Assembly: GCA_002796245.1 (NCBI GenBank)
Contig: PCWT01000048.1
Location: forward strand, 5,790-69,789
DNA: 64,000 nt
Direction of reading: 5' to 3'
Source: Gammaproteobacteria bacterium CG11_big_fil_rev_8_21_14_0_20_46_22
GTDB taxonomy: Bacteria; Pseudomonadota; Gammaproteobacteria; UBA12402
Position 1 is the stretch's first letter. Each line of letters begins with the position of its first letter. Made by a program: the position numbers and the translations under genes. The notes under the pieces were generated by a model. It made no database searches. It saw nothing but the letters and a program-made list of their open reading frames with translations, and was not told the DNA's origin. Positions 3,720 through 61,230 of the stretch are shown here, piece by piece.

Positions 3720-4899
3720 TCAATTGTTTGCCGACTTTTTCGAAAGCAGCAATCGCTTTATCTAAATCCGCACGCGTTAAACCAGCCGACATTTGTGTAC
3801 GAATACGGGCTTTTTCACGAGGCACCACCGGGAATGAAAAGGCGATAACATACACGCCTTCTTTTAACATTGCATCGGCAAAGGTTTTAGCAAGCTTAGC
3901 ATCACCCAGCATGACGGGAATAATGGCATGATGGCCCGGCACCAGCTCAAACCCCAATGCTTGCATTTTTTCTCTGAAATATTGGCTGTTTTCACGCAAT
4001 CTTTGACGATACTCTGGTTTTTCTTTAAGCAACTCAATCGCGCGCACCGAAGCTTTCGCAATCATCGGGGCGAGTGAATTTGAAAACAAATACGGGCGTG
4101 AACGCTCGCGAAGCCAGGTAATAATGTCTTTTCGGCCGCTGGTGTAACCGCCGGATGCGCCACCTAAAGCTTTGCCCAGTGTGCCAGTAATAATATCGAC
4201 CCGACCTTCAACACCACAATACTCAGGCGTACCGCGCCCATGTTCGCCCACAAAACCCACAGCATGTGAATCATCAACCATGACTAATGCGTTGTACTTA
4301 TCGGCCAAATCACAAATTGATTTAAGGTCAGCCAAGATACCATCCATAGAAAAAACACCGTCTGTCACAATCAACTTAAAACGCGCGTCAGCCGCCGCTT
4401 TTAACTGCTCTTCAAGATCAGCCATATTGTTATTTTTGTAGCGAAAACGCTGCGCTTTACATAAGCGCACGCCATCAATAATACTCGCGTGATTCAATTC
4501 ATCGCTGATGATTGCATCTTCAGGACCCAACAATGTTTCAAACAATCCTGTGTTCGCATCAAAGCACGATGAATATAAAATGGTATCTTCAGTCCCCAAA
4601 AACTCACTGATCATCTTTTCTAATGTTTTGTGAACACTTTGCGTGCCACAAATAAAACGCACAGAAGCCATGCCATAGCCATAGTGGTCTAAAGCCTGTT
4701 TTGCGGCTTCAATGAGAGCAGGATCATCAGCAAGCCCAAGATAATTATTCGCACAAAGGTTTAGTACCTTCTCGCCCGAGTCGACCTTAATAGAGGCGCT
4801 CTGTGGTGAAGTAATCACTCGTTCGCCCTTATACAAGCCAACTTCTTTCAAGCCTTCAATTTCGGTATGTAGGTGTTTTAAAAACTCGGTGTTACTCAT
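3709..4899 (-). CDS. kbl: 2-amino-3-ketobutyrate CoA ligase (glycine C-acetyltransferase)
   Basis: High similarity to E. coli Kbl along its length ([32 protein letters not shown]). The start ATG is nested in the last codons of the upstream tfuA-like gene. Confidence 0.93.
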
Positions 4900-6136
4900 G
4901 CTGCTCTCCTATGAGATATTGATAGGCCTGAAGGACCCAACGACGGCTGTCCATAATAATAGGAATATCCAACAAATCAAAGCCATTTGTAAGCACTGCA
5001 TATTCAAATAGTGACAAGTACTCAACAAACAGGGGCAAAGCCTGCGTTTCATCCAAATCATTATTCTTAAGCCACTGCAGCGTGGCCTCACGCTGTTTAA
5101 GGCCGTGGCGTTTTCTAAAGCGATTAAAAAAAGCTTGAGCCATACCTGGCGAAAGACTTACCTTGATATCACGATAATAGCTATAAATAAGCGCAAACGC
5201 TTTTGCGATCAACCTAGCCTCAACACCCTTCTCAACATCACGATATAAAGCATAAAATTTTTCAAATTGTGTTTCAGCGTATTCTGTCGATAAAGTTGAA
5301 AAACCCTGAGACCGAATCTCATGTTCGATCTGCAGCACTTTTGCCAAATCAATCAATCGCTGTTTTTGTGCATCTGAACACCCGCACAAAGCGCGCTCAG
5401 TCTCAGGGAGCCAATCATAGTTATTGTCAAACGGCCGACTTATGGCTTCACGGTAAATACGCTTAGTAAAGTAGCTCGGCAGCGCCTGCGGCTTTTTTAT
5501 TTTTGAGCGGATGGGGGTTTGATGAGCAAGCGAAAGTGCCGCTCGCGCATCACAGGCCTTTTGATCGACAGTGTACTTTTTAAAAATCTCGACCGAGAGC
5601 CCAAGCGATGTTAACGTTTGATACACATCACGCTGGTAATACGGTTGTTGCTTAAGCGCATCAATAACCTTCTGAGCATCAATCATCTCAATAGCTTGTT
5701 TTTTTATGGCGTTTTTTAGCGTAGCCCGCACATTTACCAAGGGGACAACCCTTGATTGAAACCCAGCTTCCTGGCTTGAATGCGGCAACGAAACCTCGTC
5801 GTCACCATCAATAAAGCCTGAGTGATACCATTGAAAAATCTCGCCCACACCACGCATACCCTCATCACAGAGCTCAGCAGCACGCAAAGCACCCATGCTC
5901 GCTGCCCCCCAAACTTCAACACCCGAGTCCAGGGCGAATAAAATTTCTTTATGCCATACTGAAGCAGTTTGCTCGAACAAGCCATCAATAATAATTAAAC
6001 GCTTCGGCGATAAGCTCATCAGTTTAAACACATCACCGCAACGTACAGGGTCTGAAAAACAGGCTTCTGGTAAGCATTCTTTTGCCTCCTGCCGGGAAAG
6101 TGTTGGGCCCAAAAAAACGATCGTATCTGTACTCAT
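4892..6136 (-). CDS. tfuA: TfuA-like protein (YcaO partner), N-terminal TfuA domain plus a ~200-aa C-terminal extension
   Basis: N-terminal TfuA-domain hallmarks: [46 protein letters not shown]. Its start overlaps the ycaO stop by 4 nt (ATGA). Confidence 0.8.
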
Positions 6137-7233
6137 ACACTAACTCCTGGTGCAATAAGCTGCACAACAGCAATCGCATCATCGGGTTTTGTGTAAACTA
6201 AACGGTAAATATCGTGTGAAATTGAGGCAAGCAAATGTGTCTGCATCGCTTTAAACGATTGAAACAGCATTGATGATTGTGTTGTGTAATCGATTGTTGC
6301 TTTAAAATTAATCGATTGATTTTTCTGCTCATACAGGGTGTCGACCACATCATCTCGCGAACCTGAAATCAAAGTTAATCGCGACTGAACAGCCTCTGTG
6401 AGCGCACGACTCAGGGCGATATCTTTATTGACGTGTGCACCATAGCCCGAAAAAACACCAACACGTCGAAAAAAGCGCTCGTCAAACAGCGTGGCCATAT
6501 AGCTTGGCATCGTGTTTGCAGTAGAGCTTACATCCACTATGACAAGCGACAGACCCTTTTCCTGCAAAGCCTTTATTCGATCGCGAAGAGGTGGGCAATC
6601 AATAGTATTCAATTTAATCGCACGATGCGCTTTTTCTGCATCAGAGAGACGGTGATAACGATAGGCATTCATACGTTCAATGATTTCAAGTAAAGCATGA
6701 CAACTTGCCTCTTCTAGATTATTACCCGAGGCCAAACCCGTCGTTGTTCGCTTAAAGAGCGTGTTTTCCAGCGTGCATTCGGTTAAATCAAATGAAATGG
6801 CTGCGCGAGGAATATAATACACCTCACCGCTCAAACAATGTCTTAGCGCTGTCCAGGCAATTGGCAAGTTCAAAAGATCATCGTGTTTAAATGTGCCTTG
6901 CTGAAAAACATCAGGACTAATGCAAGCATATTCATGGCTAAGCGCATGGTAGCTTCCAACAAGGTCAGACGGTGTTTGCTCAGCGTAGTAGTGTTCAATC
7001 GCTTCCATGTACGCGCTACACATCGACAACTCAGGCGTTAAACCTTTACCCTGCGAGGTGCTTAAATTTTTAGAGCGCGGGCGAATACAAGTATGAACCG
7101 GCAAACCCACATCATCCAAACCGGTTAAATCCGCAATACGTGAGATGCCCGCCTGTTTTGCATACGGCTTTAAACAGGCCAAGGTTTCTTCTGGGGTTCT
7201 GGCACGCAATGTCCCGCCAACATCAATAATCAC
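6133..7233 (-). CDS. ycaO: YcaO-domain protein of the TfuA-associated type (GTG start)
   Basis: N-terminus GTLRARTPEETL...GISRIADLTGLDDVGLPV...IRP is typical of TfuA-associated YcaO proteins. The ORF is about 366 aa. It is translationally coupled to the upstream E1 gene and the downstream tfuA. Confidence 0.8.
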   Translation of the reverse strand: MIIDVGGTLRARTPEETLACLKPYAKQAGISRIADLTGLDDVGLPVHTCIRPRSKNLSTSQGKGLTPELSMCSAYMEAIEHYYAEQTPSDLVGSYHALSHEYACISPDVFQQGTFKHDDLLNLPIAWTALRHCLSGEVYYIPRAAISFDLTECTLENTLFKRTTTGLASGNNLEEASCHALLEIIERMNAYRYHRLSDAEKAHRAIKLNTIDCPPLRDRIKALQEKGLSLVIVDVSSTANTMPSYMATLFDERFFRRVGVFSGYGAHVNKDIALSRALTEAVQSRLTLISGSRDDVVDTLYEQKNQSINFKATIDYTTQSSMLFQSFKAMQTHLLASISHDIYRLVYTKPDDAIAVVQLIAPGVSV

Positions 7234-8339
7234 TAATAACTCGACTTATGAGGCTCAAAGTCTTTTATCCAAGCGATAATGCCACCTTGTAAATTATACA
7301 CATCTTTAAGTCCGCGATTTTTCAGCCAGTACACTGCCTGTGCAGAGCGCCCCCCTGAGCGGCAATATATGACGAGTGGTGACTTGAATTCGCTGACATC
7401 CATTTCTCTAATGTCCGCTAAAGGCACGGCTTTATCGCCATCGATTTGACAAATGTCTCGCTCCCAAGCTTCACGCACATCGATTAAAGTAAAAGCTTTC
7501 CCTGAGTCAAACCAGCTTTTCAAAGCTTCACACGTCAACACAGGAATGGCATTGGCTTTCTTGGGGGCTTCAGATAAATCTTTCAATGGTTTATGTAACT
7601 GACAAGTTGGGCAATCTTTTCGTGTGATGATAGGATGACGCTTCATCTGCATATTCAAAAGATCCAACTGAACAAAACTATTGTTGAGTTTTTCTGGCAA
7701 ATTAAGCAAGTGTTTGATCGCCTCGGTGGCAGCCAATGTACCCAAAACGCCCGGCACCGTACCCAATACACCGGCTTGTGCACAATTAGGTATGACACCT
7801 TCTGGTGGCGGGTTGGGGTATAAACAACGGTAACAGGGCGAGCTTTGATGACTTAGAGCGATCAACTGACCCGAAAACTGATAAATGCTGGCTGAAATTA
7901 AGGGTATCTTTTTTTGTGCGCAGGCATCAGCAACCAAGTAGCGTGTTTCATAATTATCGCTACCATCAATCACCAGGTCATAACCGTCTAACAGAACATC
8001 AATATTCGCTAAACTTAAGCGATCATTAATTGGAACAAGCTCACAAGCCGTATTAAGCGCAAACAGCTTATCGCGTGCGCACTCAACTTTTGCACGCCCT
8101 TCATCCCTCTCTGAGAACAACACCTGCCGCTGTAAGTTTGATAGCTCGACACTATCGTCATCAATAAACGCAAGCTTACCTACGCCACAAGCCGCTAAAT
8201 ATAATAACGCCGGTGAGCCAATCCCGCCGGCGCCAATACAAAGTATCGAGGATTGTTTTAATGTTTCCTGACCGGCTCGACCTATTTTCTCTACAGAGAA
8301 GTGCCGCGCATAACGAAGGTTTTCAGCTTGAGTGAACAT
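7233..8339 (-). CDS. MoeB/ThiF-type E1-like adenylyltransferase with C-terminal rhodanese domain (MoeZ-like sulfur-carrier activase)
   Basis: Rossmann motif GAGGIGS, CxxC...CxxC zinc motifs, and a C-terminal rhodanese active site CRSGGRS. Confidence 0.8.
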   Translation of the reverse strand: MFTQAENLRYARHFSVEKIGRAGQETLKQSSILCIGAGGIGSPALLYLAACGVGKLAFIDDDSVELSNLQRQVLFSERDEGRAKVECARDKLFALNTACELVPINDRLSLANIDVLLDGYDLVIDGSDNYETRYLVADACAQKKIPLISASIYQFSGQLIALSHQSSPCYRCLYPNPPPEGVIPNCAQAGVLGTVPGVLGTLAATEAIKHLLNLPEKLNNSFVQLDLLNMQMKRHPIITRKDCPTCQLHKPLKDLSEAPKKANAIPVLTCEALKSWFDSGKAFTLIDVREAWERDICQIDGDKAVPLADIREMDVSEFKSPLVIYCRSGGRSAQAVYWLKNRGLKDVYNLQGGIIAWIKDFEPHKSSY

Positions 8340-8602
8340 TATCCACCCGAAACCGATGTGATAAGCTCAAGCTCATCACCCGAGCTAAACGTGACATCAT
8401 CTAAATCGTCGACTAACGGCTTGCCATTGTGGTACACATTTAAAAACCCGTGAAGCTCATCGCCTTGATACATGACACGGAACAAAGCCGGCTCATGCTC
8501 ATGAAGGTAAGCCTTCAAGCTTGACATTGAGTTCACATCTAATGTCTTCTCACGCCAGTGGCTAAAACGCTCTAGTGCTTCGGGTAATAATAACTTGATC
8601 AT
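8339..8602 (-). CDS. MoaD/ThiS-family beta-grasp sulfur-carrier protein ending in Gly-Gly
   Basis: The 87-aa product has the N-terminus MIKLLL and the C-terminus SGDELELITSVSGG-stop, which is the MoaD/ThiS signature. Its Shine-Dalgarno sequence AAGGAGG lies in the last codons of the upstream methyltransferase, and its stop overlaps the E1 start. Confidence 0.65.
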   Translation of the reverse strand: MIKLLLPEALERFSHWREKTLDVNSMSSLKAYLHEHEPALFRVMYQGDELHGFLNVYHNGKPLVDDLDDVTFSSGDELELITSVSGG

Positions 8603-17558: not shown

Positions 17559-19205
17559 TTACATCATGCCGCCCATGCCGCCCATTCCACCCATGCCGCC
17601 CATACCGCCGCCAGCAGGTTCTTCTTCTCTTGGCATGTCAGTGATCATGCACTCAGTAGTCAGCATCAAACCCGCGATCGACGCCGCTTTTTCAAGTGCT
17701 GTACGTGTCACTTTCGTTGGATCTAAAATACCCATTTCGATCATGTCACCGAACTCGCCTGTCGCTGCGTTGTAGCCGTAGTTACCTTTGGCTTCCAAAA
17801 CTTTGTTCACAACCACAGCCGGCTCGTCGCCCGCATTTTTAGTGATTTGACGCAAAGGTGCTTGAAGCGCACGACGTGCGATCGCAATACCCATGTCTTG
17901 ATCGGCATTGTCACCTTTGACTTTTTCAATGGCTTGCATCACGCGAATCAGTGCAACACCGCCACCGGCAACCACGCCCTCTTCAACTGCAGCGCGTGTC
18001 GCATGCAAGGCATCATCCACACGCATTTTCTTTTCTTTCATTTCAGCTTCAGTTGACGCACCCACTTTGATCACTGCAACACCGCCGGCTAATTTTGCCA
18101 AACGTTCTTGCAATTTTTCTTTGTCGTAGTCAGAGCTTGTGTCTTCGATGTGTTTGCGAATGCTTTCAACACGCGCTTTAATCGCTTTGCCGTCACCTTC
18201 ACCATCGATCACTGTAGTTTCATCTTTTGTGACCACAATACGTTTGGCGGTACCCAAGTCTTCAAGTGTCGACTTTTCAAGGCTTAAACCGATTTCTTCA
18301 GAAATCACTTTACCGCCTGTCAAAATCGCGATGTCTTCCATCATGGCTTTACGACGATCACCAAAACCTGGTGCTTTCACCGCACACACTTTTACCGTGC
18401 CGCGCATATTATTCACAACCAAGGTTGCCAAGGCTTCGCCTTCGACATCTTCAGCAATGATCAATAAAGGATGACCTGATTTAGCCACGCCTTCTAACAC
18501 GGGCAACATTTCACGGATATTAGAGATTTTCTTATCAACCAATAGAATGTAGGGCTTTTCAAGCTCGACAGACATGGTTTCTTGGTTGTTAACAAAGTAC
18601 GGCGATAAATAACCGCGATCAAATTGCATACCTTCGACCACTGATAATTCGTTATCAAAACCCGAACCCTCTTCAACCGTGATAACACCTTCTTTGCCGA
18701 CTTTTTCCATCGCTTTTGCAATGATTTCACCAACAGAAGCATCAGCGTTCGCTGAAATCGTACCCACTTGGGCAATCGATTTATTATCAGTGCAAGGTTT
18801 AGACAAGCTTTTTAAATGCCCAACCGCCGCTTGAACAGCTTTTTCGATACCGCGTTTGATATCCATTGGGCTCATACCCGCCACAACGGCTTTTTCACCT
18901 TCAAGCACAAATTCACGCGCCAAAACCGTGGCCGTTGTTGTGCCATCGCCAGCTTCGTCTGCTGTTTGAGACGCCACTTCTTTGACAAACTGTGCGCCCA
19001 TGTTTTGAAGCTTGTGTTCAAGCTCTATTTCTTTAGCCACAGTCACGCCATCTTTGGTCATCAACGGTGCGCCGAAAGATTTATCAATCATGACATTACG
19101 GCCTTTTGGACCCATAGTCACCGCAACCGCATCAGCCAAGACATTCATACCAATGATCAAATGACGGCGCGCTTCTAATCCATGTTCTACTAATTTAGCA
19201 CTCAT
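17559..19205 (-). CDS. groEL: Chaperonin GroEL (Hsp60) with C-terminal GGM repeat
   Basis: Full-length similarity to Legionella and Coxiella Hsp60. The C-terminus is [14 protein letters not shown]. Confidence 0.97.
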
Positions 19206-19219
19206 AGTTTTCTCCCCAA

Positions 19220-19504
19220 TTATTCTTCAATACCCATGATGTCTTCTTCACGCATGACAACGAATTCTTTGCCATCGATTTTGACATCCGTACCGGCATA
19301 TTTACCAAACCAAACCATATCGCCCGCTTTAACTTCAACAGCCACCAAATTGCCATTGTTGTCATGCTTGCCTTTACCGGCTGCGACCACCTTGCCGCGG
19401 CTTGGTTTTTCTTTTGCATTATCAGGAATCACGATGCCACCGGCCGTCACTTCTTCTTCAAAACGTTCGATCAAAACACGATCGTGTAATGGTCTGAAAT
19501 TCAT
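19220..19504 (-). CDS. groES: Co-chaperonin GroES
   Basis: [14 protein letters not shown] matches GroES. A GGAGG Shine-Dalgarno sequence lies upstream. The ORF-track extension to 19540 uses an upstream GTG. Confidence 0.95.
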
Positions 19505-19533
19505 AGGTTTTTCCTCCAATTGTACAGTGAGTA

Positions 19534-19560
19534 TTAGCACTCAGTGTCTGAGAGTGCCAA
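19534..19560 (-). promoter_or_regulatory. CIRCE inverted repeat (HrcA operator) in the groES 5' leader
   Basis: TTAGCACTC-N9-GAGTGCCAA matches the CIRCE consensus TTAGCACTC-N9-GAGTGCTAA at 17 of 18 positions. Confidence 0.7.
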
Positions 19561-19569
19561 TCATAGGTG

Positions 19570-19600
19570 ATATGGGGTTGAGGTCAAGAAATTTCAAGGC
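19570..19600 (-). promoter_or_regulatory. Sigma32-type heat-shock promoter for groESL
   Basis: On the minus strand: GGCCTTGAAA, then a 14-nt spacer, then CCCCATAT. This matches the sigma32 consensus CCCTTGAA-N13-15-CCCCATNT. The -35 element overlaps the stop codon of the upstream GT-C gene. Confidence 0.55.
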
Positions 19601-21105
19601 CTGCGGCGATAAACCAAAAAATCTTTTGTTTGGTCGGACAAATAATAACCAGCCGCGAATTCACGGTACCTTGGAAAACGGCGCAGTATGTCATTGTAGT
19701 GTCGTTTCCTAAAGAAAATGATCAGTTTAGGGCGCGTACTTTCCAGGGAATCAAAAAACAAATTTTCGGCTTGCCTCACCCAGTAGTGCTGTCTAAGCGT
19801 CAACTTACCTTTAGCTTCAAGCTTTGGTATCGCCGGCATAAATAGCAGCGAGGGTGTTTTGATCGCTGAGTAAAGCCCAGGGTAATTGTTCCAAAGCACT
19901 TCATTTAAACCAATGTTCTCATCCGCCATCAACACAGCACCCTGCTCAACGTGCATTTTTTTGGGTATTTTCAATAAGCGTACATATACGCTTTTATTGC
20001 TGTTGGCTAAGAAAACACCGGTGTAGTTTACTTTTAGGATGACTGAAAGCACGACAGCTATCATAAAAAACAGACTAATAATCAGCATAACCGTTGATTT
20101 AAGCTCGCGCCCAAACGCAAAACCTTTCGCTTTTAAGTCGGCATAGTAATGTCCACAGGTTAAAAATAACATTGCCGTCATGAGAACAATAAAAGGATAA
20201 ATATGGTAATACCAGGCTTTGTGCTGAATAAAATATGCGCCCCATAAATAGCCTGCAGCTGCAATTAAGCAAACACGAGCAAACGGACCTTTTAGGTGGC
20301 GCAAAGCCACACAGGCGAAAAGGAACGCGGCTATCCAAGCGAGACAGGCATTGTAGGAAAGCAACAAAGTCCAACTCGCTTGCCAGAAAGGCAAATAGAG
20401 CGTTGTCACCAGCGGCAACATTTTCGTGTAGTACTCTGGTGTAAAATAAGCGATCAAAACCAGGTAAAGGCAGCCCAACACAAAAAAGCTAACCAGCTCG
20501 ACGCTCAAAAGCACCCGCAATCTTCTGGCGCGAACAGCCGCATAAAATTCAACCAACAATAAAGGCAGCAAAAAGTAAGGCTTAAGAAAAAAACCTAAGG
20601 CAGCAAAGCCAATCACAAGTCCTCGCATCAAGGGGCTTACACTTTTCCCCGTTAACGCGACCGAGCGCATACAAAAATACGGCACAGAAAAAACGATCGC
20701 GAAACATTCTCGCTCACCAAAAATCGTGCCGCTGAGCAAAAAATACCCCACACACAAACCCAAGATAATCGCCTGATATTCTTGAATCGACTTGAGCGAT
20801 TGCTTAATAAAGCGCGCCGAAAGCCACAAAGAGGCAAGGCCGACCAAGTAGTAAAAAAGCAAAAGACTCGCGTGCAAAGAGAGCTGAAAAAGTTTGCTCA
20901 GACCTATAATAAGAAAACCCAGCCAAAGGATTAAAGGTGGGTTCGTTTCAGCAAAGTCGTAATAGTAACGCCCGCCATGAAGCATACTCTGCCCACAATG
21001 CAAAAGCCAAGAAGCGTCCCAGTTCATTAAGCTGTAGGTTTGTATGAAAGTGCTCGCTATGACAATCAAGACGATCCAGGGCAAAATCCGCAATAGACTC
21101 ATCAC
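19594..21105 (-). CDS. GT-C-fold membrane glycosyltransferase (ArnT/PMT_2-like, GT39/GT83 type)
   Basis: The 503-aa product has about 11 predicted TM helices. The first loop carries YDFAETNPPLILW, which is close to the ArnT/PMT motif around EKPPL. Its start overlaps the GT2 stop by 4 nt. Confidence 0.6.
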   Translation of the reverse strand: MMSLLRILPWIVLIVIASTFIQTYSLMNWDASWLLHCGQSMLHGGRYYYDFAETNPPLILWLGFLIIGLSKLFQLSLHASLLLFYYLVGLASLWLSARFIKQSLKSIQEYQAIILGLCVGYFLLSGTIFGERECFAIVFSVPYFCMRSVALTGKSVSPLMRGLVIGFAALGFFLKPYFLLPLLLVEFYAAVRARRLRVLLSVELVSFFVLGCLYLVLIAYFTPEYYTKMLPLVTTLYLPFWQASWTLLLSYNACLAWIAAFLFACVALRHLKGPFARVCLIAAAGYLWGAYFIQHKAWYYHIYPFIVLMTAMLFLTCGHYYADLKAKGFAFGRELKSTVMLIISLFFMIAVVLSVILKVNYTGVFLANSNKSVYVRLLKIPKKMHVEQGAVLMADENIGLNEVLWNNYPGLYSAIKTPSLLFMPAIPKLEAKGKLTLRQHYWVRQAENLFFDSLESTRPKLIIFFRKRHYNDILRRFPRYREFAAGYYLSDQTKDFLVYRRRP

Positions 21106-21818
21106 CTAGGCCCAAACTTAAACATCACTAGCTTTAAAAAATGCGTAAAAAACTTAAGTATTTCACGAAAAGATAATTTACTTTTACCGTGCAAGCGATT
21201 ACCAAATTCAATGGGCACCTCCACGATCTTTGGTTTTTTAAGCTTAACCATTAGCTCAAGACCAATTTTGTAACCAATCGGGCTTAGGGTATTTTTCACA
21301 GCGGCATAGTCACTCTGACGCAAAGCAAAGAAACCCGACAAAGGATCATTAATGCGCACAAGACAACGGCCCAACTGTTTGGCAACCCAAGCATTAATAT
21401 GCCTTAGTCCGCTCCACTGTTCGTCGATTTTGGCTGAATGCACATAGCGGGAACCCAAAACCATATCCGCCCTTTCAAGTACCTCAACCAGTGCCGGAAT
21501 TTTCTCTGGCGGGTGAGAAAGATCAGCGTCCATGCACAACAGGATATCACCCAAGGCTTGATTAAAACCTTCAATCACAGAAAGGCTTAAGCTTCGATTC
21601 GCTTTTCGTACCTTAAGCTTTAACCAGGGATATTGTGCTTGTAATGATGCAACAATAACTTGTGTGTCATCCCCCGAGTCATCGTCAACCAAGATCACTT
21701 CAAAGACTGAAAACTCAGGAGCAATACTTGCCAAACGCTCACACAACGGCGAAATATTCTCTGCCTCTTGATAGCAAGGAATAATGACGGAGAGTCGCTG
21801 TTGCTTTAAATTTTTCAT
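21102..21818 (-). CDS. GT2-family polyprenol-phosphate glycosyltransferase (ArnC/DPM1-like)
   Basis: LSVIIPCYQEAENI...VILVDDDSGDDT is the GT-A DxD signature. The 238-aa size matches the ArnC/Dpm1 family. Confidence 0.8.
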   Translation of the reverse strand: MKNLKQQRLSVIIPCYQEAENISPLCERLASIAPEFSVFEVILVDDDSGDDTQVIVASLQAQYPWLKLKVRKANRSLSLSVIEGFNQALGDILLCMDADLSHPPEKIPALVEVLERADMVLGSRYVHSAKIDEQWSGLRHINAWVAKQLGRCLVRINDPLSGFFALRQSDYAAVKNTLSPIGYKIGLELMVKLKKPKIVEVPIEFGNRLHGKSKLSFREILKFFTHFLKLVMFKFGPR

Positions 21819-21840
21819 GGATACACACTAGCCTAAAAAT

Positions 21841-23202
21841 TTAGGATGATCCAGCGCTTATTAACATAAGAAACAAATACCACCAAGGATGATTTTTAGA
21901 CCGTGTGGCAATCATGTCCGCGTTTAAACGCACGATGATCCAATCAAAAATATAAACCGCTCGAATAAACCCCGGGTAGTCCTCCAAGCTTAAGCCGCCA
22001 GCGTTTAAAAAATGATTTAAATCATCTTGATAAATCAAGCTGCGCTCGTAACGAAAGCGTGTCGAGAATGCTTCAAGTTTTCCAGGCGCAATCAAAAACC
22101 CTTTCCTGTCAACGAGCCGAACCAAAGACGACCATGCCTGGGCTAAGTGTGTTTGAACAAAGGGCTGGGCCTTAGGAAATAATTGCTGGGTGTAGACAAG
22201 GTATAATGGCTGAAGTTTCGATAAGGGCGCTTTTTTAAGCAGCCCTTCACACTCATCAACCAATGATTGATGCACGAGATAATGCTTGGATGATGCTTTA
22301 AAGTGCTCAATGGCTTGGAGCAGCTCATCTGCCTCATTTGCACGCCCATCGTTTACATTGCTTAAAATCAACCATGCTCTAGCTAAATACTGCCAAGCCT
22401 TTTCAGCCTCAAGAACGTGCTCTTTCGCCCAATAGCTTATATGAAATTCTGCGGGCATTGCAGGGTGCTTAATCGACAGGCCCTGTGTCGCAGACAGCAA
22501 AGACAAGGTGGTCATCGCCTGAGTCATTACAGGCTTTTGAGTTTTTCTGCTCTGCTCAATATCCCCTTTTGCTAAAGTTTTGAGTAATAAAATAGCATCC
22601 TCACGTTTAAAGTCTTTAACGCCTGCTTTAAGATATTTTTTGGCTTGAGCTTTGAGCTCAGAATCACGCATTAAGCGAAGTATTTGTGCGGGTTTTCTAT
22701 CTAAGAAAGCTAACGCTTGAGTTGCGTTAATTAGTGCTCTTGAAAGCGCTGGCGATACGTTTTTTTTCGCACATTGTTCTTCAAGGTCATAACGCAAATT
22801 AACCAAGGCGATGGTGTGGGGCGTATACTGCTCATCGTGCAATAAAGCGACCTCGTCATCTCCCGTGAGCCTACCATCGTAAAAATCTTCAAAAATTCGT
22901 CCAACGCCTTTCATGCCGAAATCGCAAAGCTCGGCGGCACGCAGAGCACCCATGCTCGCGGCACCATAGACAGGAATGCCTTGGCCCATCACCCACAAAA
23001 TTTCTTTGTGCCACACACTGGCTTGCTCATAAAAATAGCCGTCGATAATCGCGATCGCTTTCGGTTTTAATCGAGCCGCTGATAACAAATCACCACAACG
23101 CACCGGTGGAAAACACAACGCACAATCTAGTATGGCTTCAACGTCTTGGTGTGCAATACTGGGCCCTGAAAAAACAATAATGTTATCGCTCAGCAAACTC
23201 AT
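21841..23202 (-). CDS. tfuA: TfuA-like protein, second paralog, with a long C-terminal extension
   Basis: [45 protein letters not shown]. It is about 50% identical to the first TfuA over the domain. The ATG chosen here lies 2 nt after the ycaO-2 stop; the track ORF runs further up to 23256. Confidence 0.75.
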   Translation of the reverse strand: MSLLSDNIIVFSGPSIAHQDVEAILDCALCFPPVRCGDLLSAARLKPKAIAIIDGYFYEQASVWHKEILWVMGQGIPVYGAASMGALRAAELCDFGMKGVGRIFEDFYDGRLTGDDEVALLHDEQYTPHTIALVNLRYDLEEQCAKKNVSPALSRALINATQALAFLDRKPAQILRLMRDSELKAQAKKYLKAGVKDFKREDAILLLKTLAKGDIEQSRKTQKPVMTQAMTTLSLLSATQGLSIKHPAMPAEFHISYWAKEHVLEAEKAWQYLARAWLILSNVNDGRANEADELLQAIEHFKASSKHYLVHQSLVDECEGLLKKAPLSKLQPLYLVYTQQLFPKAQPFVQTHLAQAWSSLVRLVDRKGFLIAPGKLEAFSTRFRYERSLIYQDDLNHFLNAGGLSLEDYPGFIRAVYIFDWIIVRLNADMIATRSKNHPWWYLFLMLISAGSS

Positions 23203-23204
23203 TT

Positions 23205-24314
23205 TTAACGCTGGCTCCCAAAAACAAAACCCGGTATTAAGACACTGACAACCCAAATGCCCAAAGCATCAAGCTGCCGATTCATAAAGATCAACTCGTC
23301 AAAACCAGCTTTAGACAGCAACGTCGTTAGCTCAGAAAAGCCGGCCTCATCTTGAGAGAAACCCTGTGTTTCTTCGATAGACTGAAAGGACAAGGTGCCA
23401 AGCTGTGAAACCGCTTGACCACCCTGAACTGCTTGAAAGCCTTTTTGATAATAGTGAGGGAAAATATCATCGCGGCTACCACTGGTGATCGCAACCTTTG
23501 CTTGAATCGCTTCTGTCAGGGATCGCATAAGCGCGTGATTTCGAGTAAAACTTGCACCACTACCCGAAAAACAATCCTGTCGCCCTAAGCCTTCAGAACT
23601 TATCGTACAATAAAAGCTTGGCACCCCGGCTATGCAGTGAATATCCCAAACACGAACCTGAAAGCCTTTAGAAGCACATCGGTTTATCCAATGACATAAA
23701 GCGGGATCATCAATGGTGCTAATATCAAGCTCATATTGTCTTTGTAATTTAGGTAGGCGAGCATTCCACGCCGTAAGCGCATGGCGCTCAATGGCTTCAA
23801 ACATGGCATGGCAGGCGGCAAAGTACCGTGTTTCACCACCACCCATTCCATTACTGCTGATGTGAAAATAACTAAAATCAGACCGCTCAACACTAGAGTC
23901 TATATCAAACACATTTTGGGGCACAAAAAGAGCTTGTGTGTTTTTTCGATGAAGGCGCTCAGCCAAAACCCAAGCGAGAGGTTGATCATGAATATTACAG
24001 AGAAAAGCACTCTGGCAAAATAAAGCTGGATCGACCAAGGCATGTTCATCTTTTAGCGCATTGTAAGCCCCATGAAGCAAGGCTTTGGGAGGGTTCTCTA
24101 AGCAATCGCTCTCAACAGCCTCCATCAATGCGGACAATTTCGCTTGTTCAGCTGTTTGCCCTTTTCCCAAAGCTACCGATAAATGCTTCGCTTGTGGGCG
24201 TATGGCTGAAAAAACGGGCAGACCGATAGGGTCTAGGCGGGTCAAGTCAGCCAGCCTTGTTACACCAAACGTTTGCCTTTGCTCAAGCAACTTTGTTAAA
24301 CAAGGCTGGCTCAA
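23205..24314 (-). CDS. ycaO: YcaO-domain protein of the TfuA-associated type, second paralog (TTG start)
   Basis: GVTRLADLTRLDPIGLPVFSAIRP and overall collinearity with YcaO-1. The N-terminus is about 15 aa shorter than YcaO-1. The start codon is TTG. Confidence 0.75.
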   Translation of the reverse strand: MSQPCLTKLLEQRQTFGVTRLADLTRLDPIGLPVFSAIRPQAKHLSVALGKGQTAEQAKLSALMEAVESDCLENPPKALLHGAYNALKDEHALVDPALFCQSAFLCNIHDQPLAWVLAERLHRKNTQALFVPQNVFDIDSSVERSDFSYFHISSNGMGGGETRYFAACHAMFEAIERHALTAWNARLPKLQRQYELDISTIDDPALCHWINRCASKGFQVRVWDIHCIAGVPSFYCTISSEGLGRQDCFSGSGASFTRNHALMRSLTEAIQAKVAITSGSRDDIFPHYYQKGFQAVQGGQAVSQLGTLSFQSIEETQGFSQDEAGFSELTTLLSKAGFDELIFMNRQLDALGIWVVSVLIPGFVFGSQR

Positions 24315-24322
24315 AATAGTGA

Positions 24323-24445
24323 TTAGCTCAATTGATCCACTAAATCATTACTGGTAAAGACAGGACCAATAACGGGCGTACTAAAATGCACGACATCCTC
24401 TGCTAGATCTTGTGTTAATGCGCAATTAAACGATTGTGTTTTCAT
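24323..24445 (-). CDS. Unannotated 40-codon ORF (MKTQSFNCALTQDLAEDVVHFSTPVIGPVFTSNDLVDQLS) directly upstream of ycaO-2; candidate precursor peptide
   Basis: ATG preceded by AAGGAG at 8-nt spacing. Its stop lies 8 nt before the ycaO-2 start. It is absent from the ORF track only because it falls below the 60-aa cutoff. No homology is recognised. Confidence 0.3.
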   Translation of the reverse strand: MKTQSFNCALTQDLAEDVVHFSTPVIGPVFTSNDLVDQLS

Positions 24446-24520
24446 GGGATAAACTCCTTTAGTATAGAACCGTATTATTTTTATGCGCGTATTCTAGCAA
24501 AAACCCGATGAAAATCGCAA

Positions 24521-25891
24521 TCATTCCTCTAACTTTTTAGCTGAAACACGAATAGCGCCTCGCAACAAAGGGGAAGCCTCACAAAATGGCATACCCTCAA
24601 AACCAGCAAGCACCGATTTTAAATTAGCATCGCTATCAGGCAAATGTGACGTTGATAAGATACTACCGTCGCTCGACGCTTCAAAGTGAAAACCCTTAAA
24701 TGCCGTATTCGCGATTTTTTGAATCATATCAGTCGTTTTAATACCCAGCGAATCATCCATAAACTCAGCCTGTGTTTTACGCAAAATATACATCAAGTTT
24801 TCCATGTCATTGAGCTTGCTGGTCGTTTTTTTTGAACGCGGGTAAAACTCAAGCAGTGTTGGATAGGCCAAGCTGTAATAAATTGGATTATCCGGCGCGT
24901 CAGAAAATACATTAAGATAATCTTGGTAAGCAAACGTTGGCGCATAACGCAAGCCATAGACATCAACAAAAATTTTACTGAGCATATCAACCGGGCCTGG
25001 CTCGTTTTGTGTTGCGATACGAAAGCCCGTGGCACTGCCCAAGGCCAGCTGATAGATATGGCTAATCGTATCCAACAAGTACGGGTTCTGCTTCAAGTTT
25101 TTTTGATTGATGATGCACGAATAAGCATAATCAAAGACCACCTGATTTCGTAATCCTGACGTTTTATTTAAAACCACGCTGGCTAAGTACTCACGAAACA
25201 AGCGCCATTTAAATTCTTTTTTCTCTTTTAACCAATCTTCGCTAAAAAACAACACATCAACAGTCCAAGCGGGCGAGAGTGTTTGCTTAGTCATGATTTC
25301 ATGAAAAATGCGATATTGATCCGCCAGATCAATGGGCGGGTCACCTTTAAGTGCAAACGTACGCTGTAATTTTCTAAAGTAGGTTTTATCAGAAAATTTT
25401 GACAGAAGAAAAAAACTTCTAGCGCCGGCAGAGATGGTCCATACCTTACCTAAGTGCGCAGAGCTTTTAACATCTAAGGCGGTCCATAAAGCAAAAATGG
25501 ACCCTGCTTTCATGTATTGAAAAGGGGTTGCTTGGCCGCCTTCTAACTCAATAAACAGCTCCAAGGAGTGATCAAGCACGACACCCATTGGCATCGCGTG
25601 CGTATACGATAAGGCTTTAGCGTAGTGTGGATCCAGACTGGGATCATTCAATGACACAACCCCACCTCTAGTGCGAGGCAAATTAAGCTGGCCTTTATCC
25701 AGAATAGCCTCGCCCCAACGGTATCTTGCTTTGTAGAGTTTATAATCGTCAGAAGGCGATAACTCATCAATGGCATTTGCAAGTTCAGGGTTCGCTTGCT
25801 TAACAAGCGTTCGCGCTTCTTTCCATGTTAAGACATCAACCGCGAGTGTATTATTTGAATCCGTCATAGGATAATGCCGCTTCCTTTTCAC
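24521..25891 (-). CDS. Hypothetical 456-aa protein, no recognisable family
   Basis: A long ORF with its start immediately upstream of the small ORF. It has no motifs I recognise and no signal peptide. Confidence 0.5.
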   Translation of the reverse strand: MKRKRHYPMTDSNNTLAVDVLTWKEARTLVKQANPELANAIDELSPSDDYKLYKARYRWGEAILDKGQLNLPRTRGGVVSLNDPSLDPHYAKALSYTHAMPMGVVLDHSLELFIELEGGQATPFQYMKAGSIFALWTALDVKSSAHLGKVWTISAGARSFFLLSKFSDKTYFRKLQRTFALKGDPPIDLADQYRIFHEIMTKQTLSPAWTVDVLFFSEDWLKEKKEFKWRLFREYLASVVLNKTSGLRNQVVFDYAYSCIINQKNLKQNPYLLDTISHIYQLALGSATGFRIATQNEPGPVDMLSKIFVDVYGLRYAPTFAYQDYLNVFSDAPDNPIYYSLAYPTLLEFYPRSKKTTSKLNDMENLMYILRKTQAEFMDDSLGIKTTDMIQKIANTAFKGFHFEASSDGSILSTSHLPDSDANLKSVLAGFEGMPFCEASPLLRGAIRVSAKKLEE

Positions 25892-25987
25892 ACGACATTC
25901 TGACAGTTTTTTAAAGCCCTGCCAATCTCAGTTGAAGGTTTCAAGAAGGCCGTAAAACCTTCCCTGGCGGCTCTTGGCGTAGAGAAA

Positions 25988-27409
25988 CTACTCAACCTTA
26001 TGGATCACAAGGCTATTGGTGCCACCATCAACACCCAGTGTTGCGCCACGCGTTACAATGACACGATCACCAACCTGAAGTCGCCCCATGTTTTTTAAAT
26101 GTGCGATAGCTTCATTCAATGGATTGCGATGCTCATCCAAAGACAGGTCGAAGAAAATCGGGAAAACATCGCGATACAGCGCCATTTTGCGCTGAGACCC
26201 AATATTGCGAGTCAGGGCAAAAATCGGTGTACCCGTGCGGATACGAGACATCCAGCGCGGCGTTGAACCGGACTCGGTGAGCGCAACAATGGCTGCGACA
26301 TCCAAATGGTTAGCAACATAGGTTGCTGCCATCGCGATAGCTTCATCCACTCGCTCAAAGTGGCATTCAACACGATGACCGGAGACTTTTGTTTCGGGTT
26401 GACGCTCAACCGCATCACAAATACGGGTCATAGCAGCAACCACTTTAACCGGATGTTTGCCTACAGCGCTCTCTGCTGAAAGCATAATGGCATCTGTATT
26501 ATCTAAAACCGCATTGGCCACATCCGAAACCTCAGCACGCGTAGGTACCGTGCTTTCAATCATAGACTCCATCATTTGCGTGGCTGTGATGGCAAGCCTG
26601 TCAAACTTACGCGCGCGACGAATAATTTTCTTTTGCACCGCGGGCACTTCCGCATCACCGATTTCAACGGCCAAGTCCCCGCGCGCGACCATGACGGCAT
26701 CAGAAGCCTTAATAATCTCGTCGAGATTTTCAACCGCTTCGGTACGCTCAATTTTTGCAACGATGTGCGCATCACCGTTGGCTTTTCGAATTAACTCGCG
26801 CGCTTCTTCAATATCACTGGCATCACGCGGAAATGACACGGCGATATAATCTGCACCCAGCCCTATCGCCGTAACGAGGTCTGCTTTATCTTTATCCGTG
26901 AGTGCTTTTGCTGATAGGCCGCCGCCTTGTCGGTTAATGCCTTTATTGTTGGAAAGCTTGCCGCCCACCTCGACACAACACGCTATACGTGTTCCCTCAA
27001 CGCGCTCAACATTCAGGGTTAGGCGACCATCATCCAGCAATAAAACATCACCCGGGCTGACATCATTGGCCAAAGTTTTATAGTCCACACTCACGCAGCT
27101 GTCATCGCCGGCATTTTCATCTAAGGCGGCGTCAAGTACAAAGCGTTGACCTGCAGTCAACTCAACCGAACCGTTTTTAAAACGAGAAACACGAATCTTA
27201 GGCCCTTGTAAGTCGGCCATGATCGCCACTTCACGACCAAGTCTGTCAGAAGCTTGCCGTACCAAAGAAAAACGCTTGGCGTGCTCTTCTCTACTGCCGT
27301 GGGAAAAATTCACACGAAAGACGTCCGCACCGGCGTTCATCACACCGAGCAGACTGTCTAGGGAGTCAAGAGATGGGCCGAGCGTAACAATGATTTTTGT
27401 GCGCTTCAT
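25988..27409 (-). CDS. pyk: Pyruvate kinase
   Basis: MKRTKIIVTLGPS...FRVNFSHG...MADLQGPKIRV. Confidence 0.93.
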   Translation of the reverse strand: MKRTKIIVTLGPSLDSLDSLLGVMNAGADVFRVNFSHGSREEHAKRFSLVRQASDRLGREVAIMADLQGPKIRVSRFKNGSVELTAGQRFVLDAALDENAGDDSCVSVDYKTLANDVSPGDVLLLDDGRLTLNVERVEGTRIACCVEVGGKLSNNKGINRQGGGLSAKALTDKDKADLVTAIGLGADYIAVSFPRDASDIEEARELIRKANGDAHIVAKIERTEAVENLDEIIKASDAVMVARGDLAVEIGDAEVPAVQKKIIRRARKFDRLAITATQMMESMIESTVPTRAEVSDVANAVLDNTDAIMLSAESAVGKHPVKVVAAMTRICDAVERQPETKVSGHRVECHFERVDEAIAMAATYVANHLDVAAIVALTESGSTPRWMSRIRTGTPIFALTRNIGSQRKMALYRDVFPIFFDLSLDEHRNPLNEAIAHLKNMGRLQVGDRVIVTRGATLGVDGGTNSLVIHKVE

Positions 27410-47691: not shown

Positions 47692-50100
<2,409 letters not shown>

Positions 50101-50185
50101 TCAGCTCGCCAGTATAGCAATTTGTGGTTTTTTTAGCTATACAATCGCGTTATTATCACCTTTTAAATTGGGCTCACTGGCGTTG

Positions 50186-50713
50186 ATGAAAAATGAATGC
50201 TTAATTATTTTGGGTGCAACCAATGATGATGAAGGACAGTTATCTCCGCTAGCTATTTCACGCCTTGATAAAGCCATCGAGATCATCAAATCCAAGCCGC
50301 AACTTAGGCGAAGCTCTTCTGTTTTACTTACCGGTGGTTTTGGTGATCATTTTAACCGCACAACAAGCCCTCACGCCGAATTATTAAGAGGCTATCTTCT
50401 TAAAAAAGGTGTCGAAAATGACGCTATTTGTAGAGATCTTGTTTTATCTAGTAACACAATCGAAGATGCTGAGCTTTCAGCAAAGCGGCCTGACTGCTTA
50501 AATTTTGATCAAATTAACTTATTGACCTCGGATTTTCATCTTGAAAGAGCGCTTTTTCTTTTTCATGCCAACCTACCAAAACACACTATCGTCGGTATTG
50601 CCTCTAAAACCCCAGCTCATATTAATAGAAAGCCGCTGATAGAACACGAGACACGCACTTTGAAGTGGCTACAAGCTCACTATGTCCCCGCACAATCGGC
50701 TGCTGATCGTTAA
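50186..50713 (+). CDS. DUF218 (YdcF/ElyC-like) domain protein
   Basis: LTSDFHLERA motif. The start was chosen at MKNECL; the track ORF begins inside the gyrB 5' end. Confidence 0.55.
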   Translation: MKNECLIILGATNDDEGQLSPLAISRLDKAIEIIKSKPQLRRSSSVLLTGGFGDHFNRTTSPHAELLRGYLLKKGVENDAICRDLVLSSNTIEDAELSAKRPDCLNFDQINLLTSDFHLERALFLFHANLPKHTIVGIASKTPAHINRKPLIEHETRTLKWLQAHYVPAQSAADR

Positions 50714-51786
50714 ACGGATTTAACCTCGCCGCGTTCCACGTGGAACACGGCGGGCATTTTACCCAGCAACTCAAGCTCTACGTCGCCTTGCTCGATCACT
50801 GAAATAAATACCTGAGCATTTATGGCCCGCAAACAGGACAGCATTCGGCGCAATACCGCTTGGTCCAGCTCTGCTGCAATATCATCAACTAACACCAGCG
50901 GTCTGTTTTGAGACCGAGCCTCAGCTGAGTACATGGCAAACTGTGCCAATGAAACCGCTAGCAATAAGGCTTTTTGCTGCCCCCTGGAAAACACATCTTT
51001 TACCAAACCGTTTTCAGTTTTAAATAACAAATCCGCGCGGTGAGCACCATAATAAGTAAAGCCGCGTTGATAATCCTCAGCTAAACTCATCGCCAGAGAG
51101 TTTTTGAAGTCACATCCGGCTTTTGCACCTGATTTATACGTGACAACAATGGATAATCCAGGCAAAAACGCTGAAGCAAGCCTCGTTATCTCAGAAACAA
51201 AGCCGTCCCAGTATTTTTGGCGGAAATGGTCGATATTCTCGGCCATCGCGACAAGCTCGTCGTCCCAAGCCGTCACCTGGTCTTCAGAAAGACGCATTTT
51301 CAGCGCCTTATTGCGCTGCTTCAACGCTTTTTGGTAACGACTCCAATACGCAAAGAATTGAGGTTCCACGTGGAACAATAGCCAATCCAATAAATGACGT
51401 CGTTTTTGCGACCCGCCCATAAACACATCGAAAGAATCATAATTCAACAGCACCATAGGCAGAACCCGAGCGAGCTGGGAAACAGAGTCCGGTTTTTCAC
51501 CCGAAAGCTTAATAACAGCGGGTTCGGTCAGCGATTTTTGAATCCCTAGCGTGGTTGAATCGTCACATTCAGCAAATAAAGTAAACGCAGGCTGATCAAA
51601 AGCGATAACCCGTTGATTAATATGATTTCGAAAAGAACGACTGGTACTTAAATAGTAAATAGCTTCAAACAAGCTCGTTTTACCGGAGCCATTATCACCG
51701 TAAAATAGATTAAAATTTGGGCAAAAATTTAATGAAACGTGAGTCAGGTTTCTAAAATGATTAATAGTTAACCTTTTTAGTGTCAT
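50710..51786 (-). CDS. recF: DNA replication and repair protein RecF
   Basis: Walker A GDNGSGKTS. It sits in the dnaA-dnaN-recF-gyrB order. Confidence 0.95.
   Translation of the reverse strand: MTLKRLTINHFRNLTHVSLNFCPNFNLFYGDNGSGKTSLFEAIYYLSTSRSFRNHINQRVIAFDQPAFTLFAECDDSTTLGIQKSLTEPAVIKLSGEKPDSVSQLARVLPMVLLNYDSFDVFMGGSQKRRHLLDWLLFHVEPQFFAYWSRYQKALKQRNKALKMRLSEDQVTAWDDELVAMAENIDHFRQKYWDGFVSEITRLASAFLPGLSIVVTYKSGAKAGCDFKNSLAMSLAEDYQRGFTYYGAHRADLLFKTENGLVKDVFSRGQQKALLLAVSLAQFAMYSAEARSQNRPLVLVDDIAAELDQAVLRRMLSCLRAINAQVFISVIEQGDVELELLGKMPAVFHVERGEVKSV
50731..50746. other. parS-like centromere site cGTTCCACGTGGAACa (inside the recF 3' end)
   Basis: A 14-bp perfect palindrome. It matches the Pseudomonas-type parS consensus TGTTCCACGTGGAACA at 15 of 16 positions. 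Confidence 0.6.
51362..51377. other. Second parS-like site gGTTCCACGTGGAACa (inside recF)
   Basis: A 14-bp core identical to the first site, 630 bp away. Both encode F-H-V-E in RecF. Confidence 0.6.
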
Positions 51787-51807
51787 TCCGCGCTCATGAC
51801 CGAATTT

Positions 51808-52917: not shown

Positions 52918-52929
52918 AGTCCTTTCCCG

Positions 52930-54273: not shown

Positions 54274-54276
54274 GCG

Positions 54277-54749: not shown

Positions 54750-54884
54750 ATGAAAAGAACATATCAACCCAGTAACTTAAAACGAAAAAGAACCCACGGT
54801 TTTCGTGCACGCATGGCAACAAAAAGTGGTCGTCAATTAATCAATCGACGACGCGCTAAAGGACGTAAGCGCCTTTCTGCTTAA
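54750..54884 (+). CDS. rpmH: 50S ribosomal protein L34
   Basis: [44 protein letters not shown]. It is not in the ORF track because it is under 60 aa. Confidence 0.9.
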
Positions 54885-55443: not shown

Positions 55444-55449
55444 ACGATT

Positions 55450-58454: not shown

Positions 58455-58523
58455 CAGCACACTTTACTTTTTACACAATTCGTATTAAAAATAAACCCGA
58501 TTCAAAATCATAAGGAAAAAGGT

Positions 58524-59295: not shown

Positions 59296-59353
59296 ACTTG
59301 ATCGAATAAGCGATTAATCTATAATAGGCCAAAATTTTTACAGAATAAGCACC

Positions 59354-61225: not shown

Positions 61226-61230
61226 TCAAC

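Follow-up and report, generated by a model that had tools for sequence, protein, structure and literature searches.

Does one operon in a groundwater bacterium couple the thioamidation of a small peptide to its glycosylation from a lipid-linked sugar? The question is raised by a 64,000-nucleotide stretch of contig PCWT01000048.1 (the window), which comes from the groundwater metagenome-assembled genome (MAG) of Gammaproteobacteria bacterium CG11_big_fil_rev_8_21_14_0_20_46_22, and in which five open reading frames (ORFs) follow one another on the minus strand: a mini-ORF, ycaO-2, tfuA-2, a family 2 glycosyltransferase (GT2) gene and a gene for a membrane protein labeled as a GT-C glycosyltransferase. 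A first-pass annotation made from the sequence alone had delimited these genes to 19594-24445 and had presented them as a combination of thioamidation with lipid-linked glycosylation not described before. The five ORFs and all junctions claimed for them are exact, and the locus is indeed the second of its kind in the window, YcaO-1 and TfuA-1 being encoded at 7233-4892. The span, although right in the genes that it holds, is one gene short, since the gene immediately upstream of the mini-ORF, here called up456, belongs to the YcaO unit. All features of both loci lie on the minus strand, and related loci are referred to by number (L008 and so on).

We favor, with moderate confidence, a reading of this span as two independent units, a cassette resembling those for thioamidated RiPPs (peptides made on the ribosome and modified after translation) and a GT2/GT-C pair, which are co-transcribed probably through tight packing only. 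On our best reading of the sequences, Unit A, consisting of up456, a 40-amino-acid (aa) peptide, YcaO-2 and a long TfuA-2 (25867-21841), would be a horizontally mobile thioamide RiPP-like cassette, while Unit B, the GT2 and GT-C genes (21818-19594), is best read as an older resident of the interval between pyk and groES that became a neighbor by chance.

The glycosyltransferase pair without the cassette

The GT2 gene (21818-21102; Pfam PF00535, 7e-29) begins after a gap of 22 nt from the tfuA-2 stop codon and is overlapped by the gene for the 503-aa GT-C-fold membrane protein (21105-19594), by 4 nt if the latter starts at a GTG and by 1 nt if it starts at the ATG chosen by gene callers. In L008, whose GT-C protein is 46% identical, the order is pgk-pyk-[62 aa]-GT2-GT-C-groES, and YcaO, TfuA, the mini-ORF and up456 are all absent. 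Two contigs with about 81% nucleotide identity to the window (L013 and L014) read gap-pgk-pyk-up456-[24 nt]-GT2, and L010, from the same sample as L013, continues GT2-GT-C-groES, the combined arrangement of this sister lineage being a reconstruction from two contigs of one sample. More distantly, L056 and L057 (GT-C 25% identical) hold a 232-aa GT2 whose gene overlaps that of the GT-C protein in an unrelated neighborhood of HMG-CoA lyase, enoyl-CoA hydratase, membrane-fusion protein and epimerase genes. That the pair is kept in L008, in L013 plus L010 and in L056/L057 indicates that the short GT2 and the GT-C protein form a self-contained two-gene unit. Irrespective of ycaO and tfuA, the pair stays between pyk and groES in this lineage, and no GT2 or GT-C homolog (E <= 1e-5, within 10 kb) was found at any of 38 other YcaO-TfuA loci (34 from GTDB genomes plus L006, L015, L016 and L018).

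Aligned to the window by blastn, L013 and L014 match up to 24519 and resume at 21826, a break that delimits the promoter-like site described below, the mini-ORF, ycaO-2 and tfuA-2 as a precise 2.7-kb indel (block absent from L013/L014, 21827-24518). No flanking direct repeats were found at its boundaries, so that no mechanism of insertion or deletion can be named. As up456 adjoins the peptide gene wherever both are found, the lone up456 of L013 is most simply explained by deletion of peptide, ycaO and tfuA. We infer that the cassette, with all four genes, arrived between pyk and GT2 once the L008 lineage had branched off, for which plasmid copies such as those described below (L018 and a JGI contig) would offer a vehicle.

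These observations bear on the idea that all five genes form one operon, whose thioamidated peptide would be exported and then glycosylated by the GT2/GT-C pair from a lipid-linked sugar. The genes are contiguous and co-directional, the 22-nt gap between tfuA-2 and GT2 holds no detectable terminator or promoter (promoter and terminator scans stayed at background level), and among the extra enzymes reported near TfuA clusters, glycosyltransferases are the most frequent (PMC8120280). However, the pair keeps both place and partner in relatives without ycaO and tfuA, at least 11 loci have the cassette without the glycosyltransferases, the sister lineage lacks peptide, ycaO and tfuA while its GT2 and GT-C genes are intact, and the peptide has no signal sequence, nor does the window cassette include an exporter. 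By synteny, a joint thioamidation-glycosylation pathway is, in our view, highly improbable; the apparent operon is an accident of insertion beside a resident pair. Co-transcription is likely, given that no separate promoter for the pair was found, but in a tightly packed co-directional array this is no sign of a common function.

The 62-aa ORF of L008 (2433-2621) has a good ribosome-binding site, occupies the position that the cassette takes between pyk and GT2 and has no homolog in the window.

Nature of the GT2 and GT-C proteins

The GT2 protein consists of a 238-aa catalytic domain alone, without transmembrane segments. Its best solved relative is the dolichyl-phosphate mannose synthase (DPMS) of P. 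furiosus (5mlz; 3.1e-46, residues 6-233), compared with 1e-16 for ArnC and 1e-9 for GtrB; it scores 69.6 bits against a cutoff of 529 for the ArnC equivalog model NF007986 and lacks the C-terminal transmembrane helices. By sequence, then, it is much closer to a polyprenyl-phosphate hexose (mannose-type) synthase than to ArnC.

For the 503-aa protein, no Pfam, NCBIfam or PDB-profile match was obtained, and it falls into no curated GT-C sequence family (PMT, ArnT/PMT_2). An AlphaFold2 model built with 13 homologs (pLDDT 88.3) was compared with the PDB by Foldseek, and the top 12 matches were GT-C enzymes only, headed by ArnT (5f15; E 1.6e-5, TM-score 0.54) and followed by AftA, STT3, DPY19, AglB, ALG3, AftD, EmbB and Pmt4. 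In this model the protein is of GT-C fold, with multiple transmembrane segments and a periplasmic C-terminal domain; the GT-C label given at first sight thus stands at the level of the fold, though not at that of sequence families.

The first-pass annotation had also offered a fallback, in which the pair was an ordinary ArnC/ArnT-like operon for lipid A modification that happened to sit downstream. The independence of the pair is borne out, but the family is not: besides the preference for DPMS, none of arnA, arnB, arnD or arnE/F was found among the annotated genes of the window, where the neighbors are pyk, up456, groES and groEL. Compared with DPMS/PMT, mycobacterial Ppm1/Pmt and ArnC/ArnT, the likeness would lie in a GT2 that loads a sugar onto polyprenyl phosphate and whose gene is followed directly by an overlapping GT-C gene; in addition, the best structural match of the GT-C protein is ArnT, and the best sequence match of GT2 is DPMS. 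Unlike PfDPMS, ArnC and GtrB, the GT2 of the window has no membrane anchor, and unlike members of the PMT and ArnT families, its partner has no sequence-level match and no arnA/B/D/E/F genes accompany it. In the proposed scheme, the soluble DPM1/Ppm1-like GT2 would load a hexose, probably of mannose type, onto polyprenyl phosphate, and the GT-C enzyme would pass it to a periplasmic acceptor; Unit B would not act on the product of Unit A.

A distant GT-C homolog (31% identity over 63%) without GT2 was seen in L011 (9529-11479) and L012 (144-2094), where it is transcribed divergently from a gene like those for type IV pilins (N_methyl/ComP_DUS) and adjoins a DsbA-like gene. The neighborhood hints at pilin glycosylation by some members of this GT-C family.

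A conserved family of small peptides

The mini-ORF (24445-24323) comprises 40 codons, is preceded by AAGGAG 7 nt upstream of its ATG, and encodes the candidate precursor MKTQSFNCALTQDLAEDVVHFSTPVIGPVFTSNDLVDQLS; it is annotated as a gene in independent assemblies too. Eleven loci carry an ORF of 40-50 codons (71 codons as called in L031) right after up456 and on the same strand. The peptides of this family have a variable, acidic N-terminal half, followed by LLGL[A/S]GP[LFM]xxx[VI]E and 6-10 further residues. At this point the window peptide reads PVIGPVFTSNDLVDQL (24329-24376), which aligns with G-P-h-x-x-x-h-[E/D]. A loose regular expression for the motif matches 10 of the 11 peptides, against a background of 1.1e-4 per residue (763,150 ORF residues), and a hidden Markov model (HMM) of the peptide recovers family ORFs only, plus one second copy in L024. 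The layout of precursor, YcaO and TfuA, for which the mini-ORF had been taken as a thioamide RiPP-like precursor gene, is in this way upheld by conservation of position in 11 loci and of motif in 10 of them.

The closest comparison is with L015, whose peptide has PV[I/V]GPVFTSNDLVDQL in common with that of the window. Over the C-terminal block of 16 codons, the two genes differ at 6 nucleotides, 5 of which are synonymous and 1 of which exchanges Ile and Val. Nucleotide identity reaches 89% over 47 nt of this block and about 65% in its flanks, and the enzymes encoded on either side of the peptide are only 37-60% identical. Such a pattern points to purifying selection on the peptide at the protein level, and by sequence conservation the mini-ORF is a real, conserved gene. 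We propose that the conserved block is the core and the region of modification. Judged by the usual division into leader and core, the peptides vary in their N-terminal halves and are conserved in their C-terminal block; neither a RiPP recognition element (RRE) nor a leader protease was identified in the cassette.

In the gap from the up456 stop to the mini-ORF lies a promoter-like site (24491-24520; TTGCGA, an 18-nt spacer and TG-n-TAGAAT), found by a consensus scan whose regional total of sites equals the expectation from shuffled sequence, so that its position alone is suggestive. A hairpin with a perfect 13-bp outer stem (24249-24311; -33 kcal/mol, z -2.8) begins 2 nt past the ycaO-2 start codon and covers about the first 65 nt of the gene; no U-tract follows it, and at the equivalent position in L015 no significant hairpin was found. 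It is possible that this structure acts as a translational attenuator, lowering the synthesis of the enzymes relative to that of the precursor. An Rfam scan of 19000-26500 returned no RNA family.

Two peptide-like ORFs with the motif LLGLSxPLxxxIE lie between up456 and ThiS in L024 (9063-9170 and 9419-9565), possibly a pair of precursor genes. Two giant repeat proteins (P0140 and P0141) that had come up as homologs of the peptide were rejected as spurious, their scores being sums over 9-16 repeats of a PxVxPxFTSD-like string.

YcaO-2 and TfuA-2

The ycaO-2 gene (24314-23205) starts with a TTG 8 nt past the stop codon of the mini-ORF, a start that is backed by the alignment to L015. Its product matches Pfam YcaO (PF02624, 2.7e-51) over residues 50-363, and its closest relative found is the YcaO of L015, with 41% identity. 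The best solved relative is MJ1094 of M. jannaschii (6pe3/6peu; E 6.7e-7), which we take to be of the McrA-thioamidation type. All columns invariant across six related YcaOs are kept, including E65, E68, E173, E176 and R177, presumably positions that bind ATP and Mg. In an index of 5.8 billion proteins, no ortholog above 35% identity was found other than the protein itself, by a word index that also missed the 41%-identical relative in L015, which was recovered through up456. From its sequence, YcaO-2 is predicted to be a TfuA-associated YcaO that activates backbone amides at the expense of ATP.

The tfuA-2 gene (23202-21841; Pfam TfuA, PF07812, 4.1e-40) begins 2 nt past the ycaO-2 stop, the junction reading TAAAAATG. 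Residues 8-212 of TfuA-2 match the solved 217-aa TfuA 6xp8 (7.4e-30), so that the protein consists of a full TfuA extended at its C terminus by about 240 aa. This extension is weakly common to all long TfuAs of the group (414-575 aa), at 22-29% identity. Both enzymes remain below the cutoffs of the equivalog models for McrA-glycine thioamidation (TIGR03266 and NF033432), with 118.6 versus 365 bits for the YcaO and 184.2 versus 235.2 bits for the TfuA.

These scores matter for a second reading, in which YcaO-2 and TfuA-2 would thioamidate a full-length protein in the manner of McrA or uL16, maybe up456 itself, and the small ORF would serve as a leader peptide for regulation or coupling. In its favor, the McrA models are the best NCBIfam matches of both enzymes even though the scores are too low, thioamidated proteins are known from Pseudomonadota (PMC13063428), no neighbor is more constant than up456, and ycaO-2 has a weak TTG start, its translation apparently being coupled to that of the small ORF. 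Yet protein-level constraint on the peptide block and a motif shared by 10 of 11 loci are more than a coupling device needs, two peptide-like copies as in L024 are typical of precursors, and YcaOs of the uL16 type work without TfuA (PMC13063428). We regard a protein substrate as unlikely.

Recurrence of the cassette in other genomes

Loci related to Unit A share a recurrent module made up of up456, the peptide, ThiS and a ThiF-rhodanese protein (both optional), YcaO, a long TfuA and, in some cases, a POT transporter, and they are hosted by MAGs of Gammaproteobacteria and Legionellales and by plasmid-like contigs. The same four-gene form as in the window is found in L015 (up456, 60% identical; a 43-aa ORF; YcaO, 41%; TfuA, 37%). 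Elsewhere the module is larger: L016 reads ThiF/rhodanese, up456, 46-aa ORF, YcaO, TfuA and a convergent POT gene, and L018 reads ParA, ParB, helix-turn-helix protein, ankyrin protein, up456, 51-aa ORF, ThiS, ThiF/rhodanese, YcaO, TfuA and again a convergent POT gene. On a 41-kb contig of JGI 3300072015, which carries ParA, ParB, Rep3 and TraY, the order is ThiS-like, ThiF/rhodanese, up456, a 1339-aa protein, a 40-aa peptide, YcaO, TfuA and a convergent MFS/PTR2 transporter. The position of the cassette beside ParA/ParB in L018, and also beside Rep3, TraY and RepA_C on the JGI contig, implies that it is plasmid-borne in some hosts. Several of these relatives are short metagenome contigs.

In addition, 34 loci were gathered from GTDB species genomes by YcaO alignment and scanned with purpose-built HMMs, of which the GT2 model was built from two sequences and the ThiS model from three. 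Nine of the 34 (L023, L024, L025, L026, L029, L030, L031, L051 and L054) have up456 upstream of the ThiS/ThiF/YcaO unit, and all nine come from MAGs of Gammaproteobacteria, Proteobacteria or Legionellales; a tenth (L027) has only a partial up456 copy, on the opposite strand and about 8 kb downstream of TfuA. In many of the 34, TfuA is followed by a convergent POT gene. Searching GTDB genomes for related loci with an up456 alignment found none, and a metagenome scan based on up456 gave three loci, of which L018 alone was long enough to use.

The richer relatives invite the suspicion that the cassette of the window is a decaying, productless remnant of a plasmid-borne cluster from which ThiS, ThiF and POT have been lost. 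It does lack a POT gene and a ThiS and ThiF of its own, peptide, ycaO and tfuA are missing from the sister lineage, and up456 is split into two ORFs in L029/L006. On the other hand, all four ORFs are intact and the invariant YcaO motif columns are kept, ThiS and ThiF-rhodanese are encoded 15 kb away at locus 1, the sequence of the strain is identical in five assemblies, and L015 shares the four-gene form. Decay therefore seems to us quite improbable.

Three further observations concern the relatives. The complete cassette of L018 (1-12949) lies beside ParA/ParB together with a gene for an ankyrin-repeat protein. The JGI contig also carries a RepA_C gene and genes for two proteins, of 1235 aa and 1339 aa, without a Pfam family. 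Finally, in L034 (6272-13683; Legionella massiliensis) and L032, ThiF and TfuA are joined by a tandem pair of YcaO genes and another TfuA, and neither up456 nor a family peptide is present; in cultured Legionella, this is a YcaO/TfuA arrangement of another kind.

The upstream partner up456

The up456 gene (24521-25867) lies immediately upstream of the mini-ORF and encodes 448 aa, or 456 aa if a GTG at 25891 is the start. Its product belongs to a family of 430-455-aa proteins, has 32 homologs but no Pfam family, and contains a Crp/cNMP-like barrel followed by a further C-terminal domain. In 11 loci the gene stands directly before the peptide gene, and this strict adjacency suggests that up456 is a binding or tailoring partner of the peptide, which is our preferred guess; a ligand-sensing regulator would be the alternative. 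It is tempting to speculate further that a new RiPP family is defined by up456 together with the LLGLxGPLxxxVE-type peptides. In it, the Crp/cNMP-barrel protein would bind or tailor the precursor as the partner of a TfuA-dependent YcaO and replace the RRE missing from such YcaOs, and the thioamidated peptide would be produced by Legionellales-like bacteria associated with hosts and be spread by plasmids. We put this forward tentatively, as a possibility that is more doubtful than probable.

A split copy of up456, by frameshift or as a pseudogene, was seen as two adjacent ORFs in L006/L029 (6338-7771; on the 2.17-Mb MAG chromosome OY968770.1), upstream of ThiS-ThiF-YcaO-TfuA-POT, and the family peptide was not detected there. 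In L021 (7643-11299), on a contig that resembles a conjugative element, with a relaxase and two type IV coupling protein genes, a 30%-identical up456 homolog without YcaO comes after a ParA-like gene and an ORF of 406 aa. Members of the wider up456 family may serve a plasmid-related function in their own right.

Proposed mechanism and points that weigh against it

For the thioamide cassette that we favor, the following sequence of events can be proposed. The peptide would be translated from its own ribosome-binding site, and the TTG start of ycaO-2, for which no obvious Shine-Dalgarno sequence is seen, would be read through translational coupling to the peptide ORF. YcaO-2 with ATP would then activate one or more backbone amides within the conserved block. 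For the sulfur, ThiF-rhodanese would charge the ThiS-like carrier, and TfuA-2 would hydrolyze the thiocarboxylated carrier and deliver sulfide, both ThiS-like and ThiF-rhodanese proteins being supplied in trans from locus 1 (8602-7233), about 15 kb away. The product would be a thioamidated peptide. Outside sulfide-rich habitats, thioamide-forming YcaOs have been described as receiving sulfide from a thiocarboxylated ThiS homolog through a TfuA hydrolase (PMC13063428), a mechanism for which PMC8939145 cites Liu et al. 2021. Rhodanese and molybdenum cofactor genes have been reported beside ycaO-tfuA (PMC5589413).

Several points weigh against this scheme or against the division into two units. 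The cassette of the window lacks ThiS, ThiF and POT genes of its own, and supply in trans is assumed. An exhaustive scan of 1.84 billion proteins yielded no close homolog of the 40-aa peptide beyond L015, and the resemblance of the window peptide to the other family members is confined to the short motif. A core more conserved than its leader is unusual for RiPPs. With a 22-nt gap free of terminators, all genes are probably on one mRNA. As for up456, it persists in L013 without peptide, YcaO or TfuA and under purifying selection (dN/dS about 0.06), and homologs with 30-36% identity have no YcaO nearby in L017 and L021, which suggests that it may function on its own, perhaps as a regulator.

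Comparison with known systems

The cassette resembles the thioviridamide/thioamitide and thiovarsolin clusters (PMC6511847, PMC8120280) in having a small ORF beside a ycaO-tfuA pair and a YcaO of the TfuA-associated type; by analogy, the expected chemistry would also be the same, an ATP-dependent exchange of O for S in the backbone. It differs from these actinobacterial thioamide RiPPs in its hosts, which are Gammaproteobacteria/Legionellales MAGs and plasmids, and in its acidic precursor, which carries LLGLxGPLxxxVE and no Cys. Further differences are the conserved Pfam-less partner of 430-455 aa, the roughly 200-360 aa that TfuA carries in addition at its C terminus, the presence of ThiS, ThiF-rhodanese and POT in the cluster (in relatives of the window cassette), and the absence of lanthipeptide-type or other known tailoring genes. 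To our knowledge, all characterized YcaO-TfuA thioamide peptides come from Actinobacteria, and we know of proteobacterial YcaO-TfuA clusters from bulk genome mining only. Many TfuA clusters of proteobacteria have been counted in this way, with glycosyltransferases noted nearby (PMC8120280).

With the archaeal system that forms thioglycine in McrA (PMC5589413), the cassette shares the best NCBIfam and PDB matches of both enzymes, and in some genomes with that system, too, sulfur-relay and rhodanese genes are nearby (PMC5589413). In contrast, the scores are far under the equivalog cutoffs, the host is bacterial, there is no McrA, and a dedicated small ORF is adjacent. Delivery of sulfur from ThiS-COSH by TfuA is matched by the similarity of TfuA-2 to 6xp8 and by a genome that encodes a GG-ending ThiS-like protein and a ThiF-rhodanese E1 enzyme, which in relatives are part of the cassette; here, however, carrier and E1 are encoded at the other YcaO locus and not in cis, and TfuA-2 has its C-terminal extension.

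Open-access text yielded no description of the cassette, which is apparently undescribed. What emerges from the comparison is a recurrent cassette, in part plasmid-borne, of uncultured Gammaproteobacteria and Legionellales, with a defined precursor family, a conserved candidate motif for modification, in-cluster sulfur-relay genes and a conserved partner protein. With four to six genes, it is small enough to be expressed as one construct, and up456 becomes a candidate for substrate recognition by TfuA-dependent YcaOs. At the same time, a thioamidation-plus-glycosylation operon is removed as a false lead.

Locus 1 and the surroundings of the window

At locus 1 (4892-8602), the order is ThiS-like, ThiF-rhodanese, YcaO-1 and a long TfuA-1 (414 aa), with an O-methyltransferase gene upstream and kbl/tdh-like genes downstream. 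The ThiS-like carrier (8339-8602) has 87 aa and a GG terminus and matches the ThiS HMM at 1e-38; the ThiF-rhodanese protein (7233-8339) is a MoeZ/Uba4-like E1 enzyme (Pfam ThiF, 1.5e-75; Rhodanese, 3.4e-11). Neither up456 nor a family peptide was found at locus 1, which may thioamidate another substrate, feed sulfur to the second locus, or do both.

Copies of the locus in five metagenome assemblies are 100% identical to the window. The window itself is chromosomal, with gyrB-recF-dnaN-dnaA followed by yidC-mnmE-mnmG-parA and a switch in GC skew near 55 kb. In this origin region (about 47700-63400), the first group of genes lies on the minus strand and the second on the plus strand, GC content drops to 0.36-0.40 and the skew flips its sign near 55 kb; oriC is probably located between 54273 and 55450.

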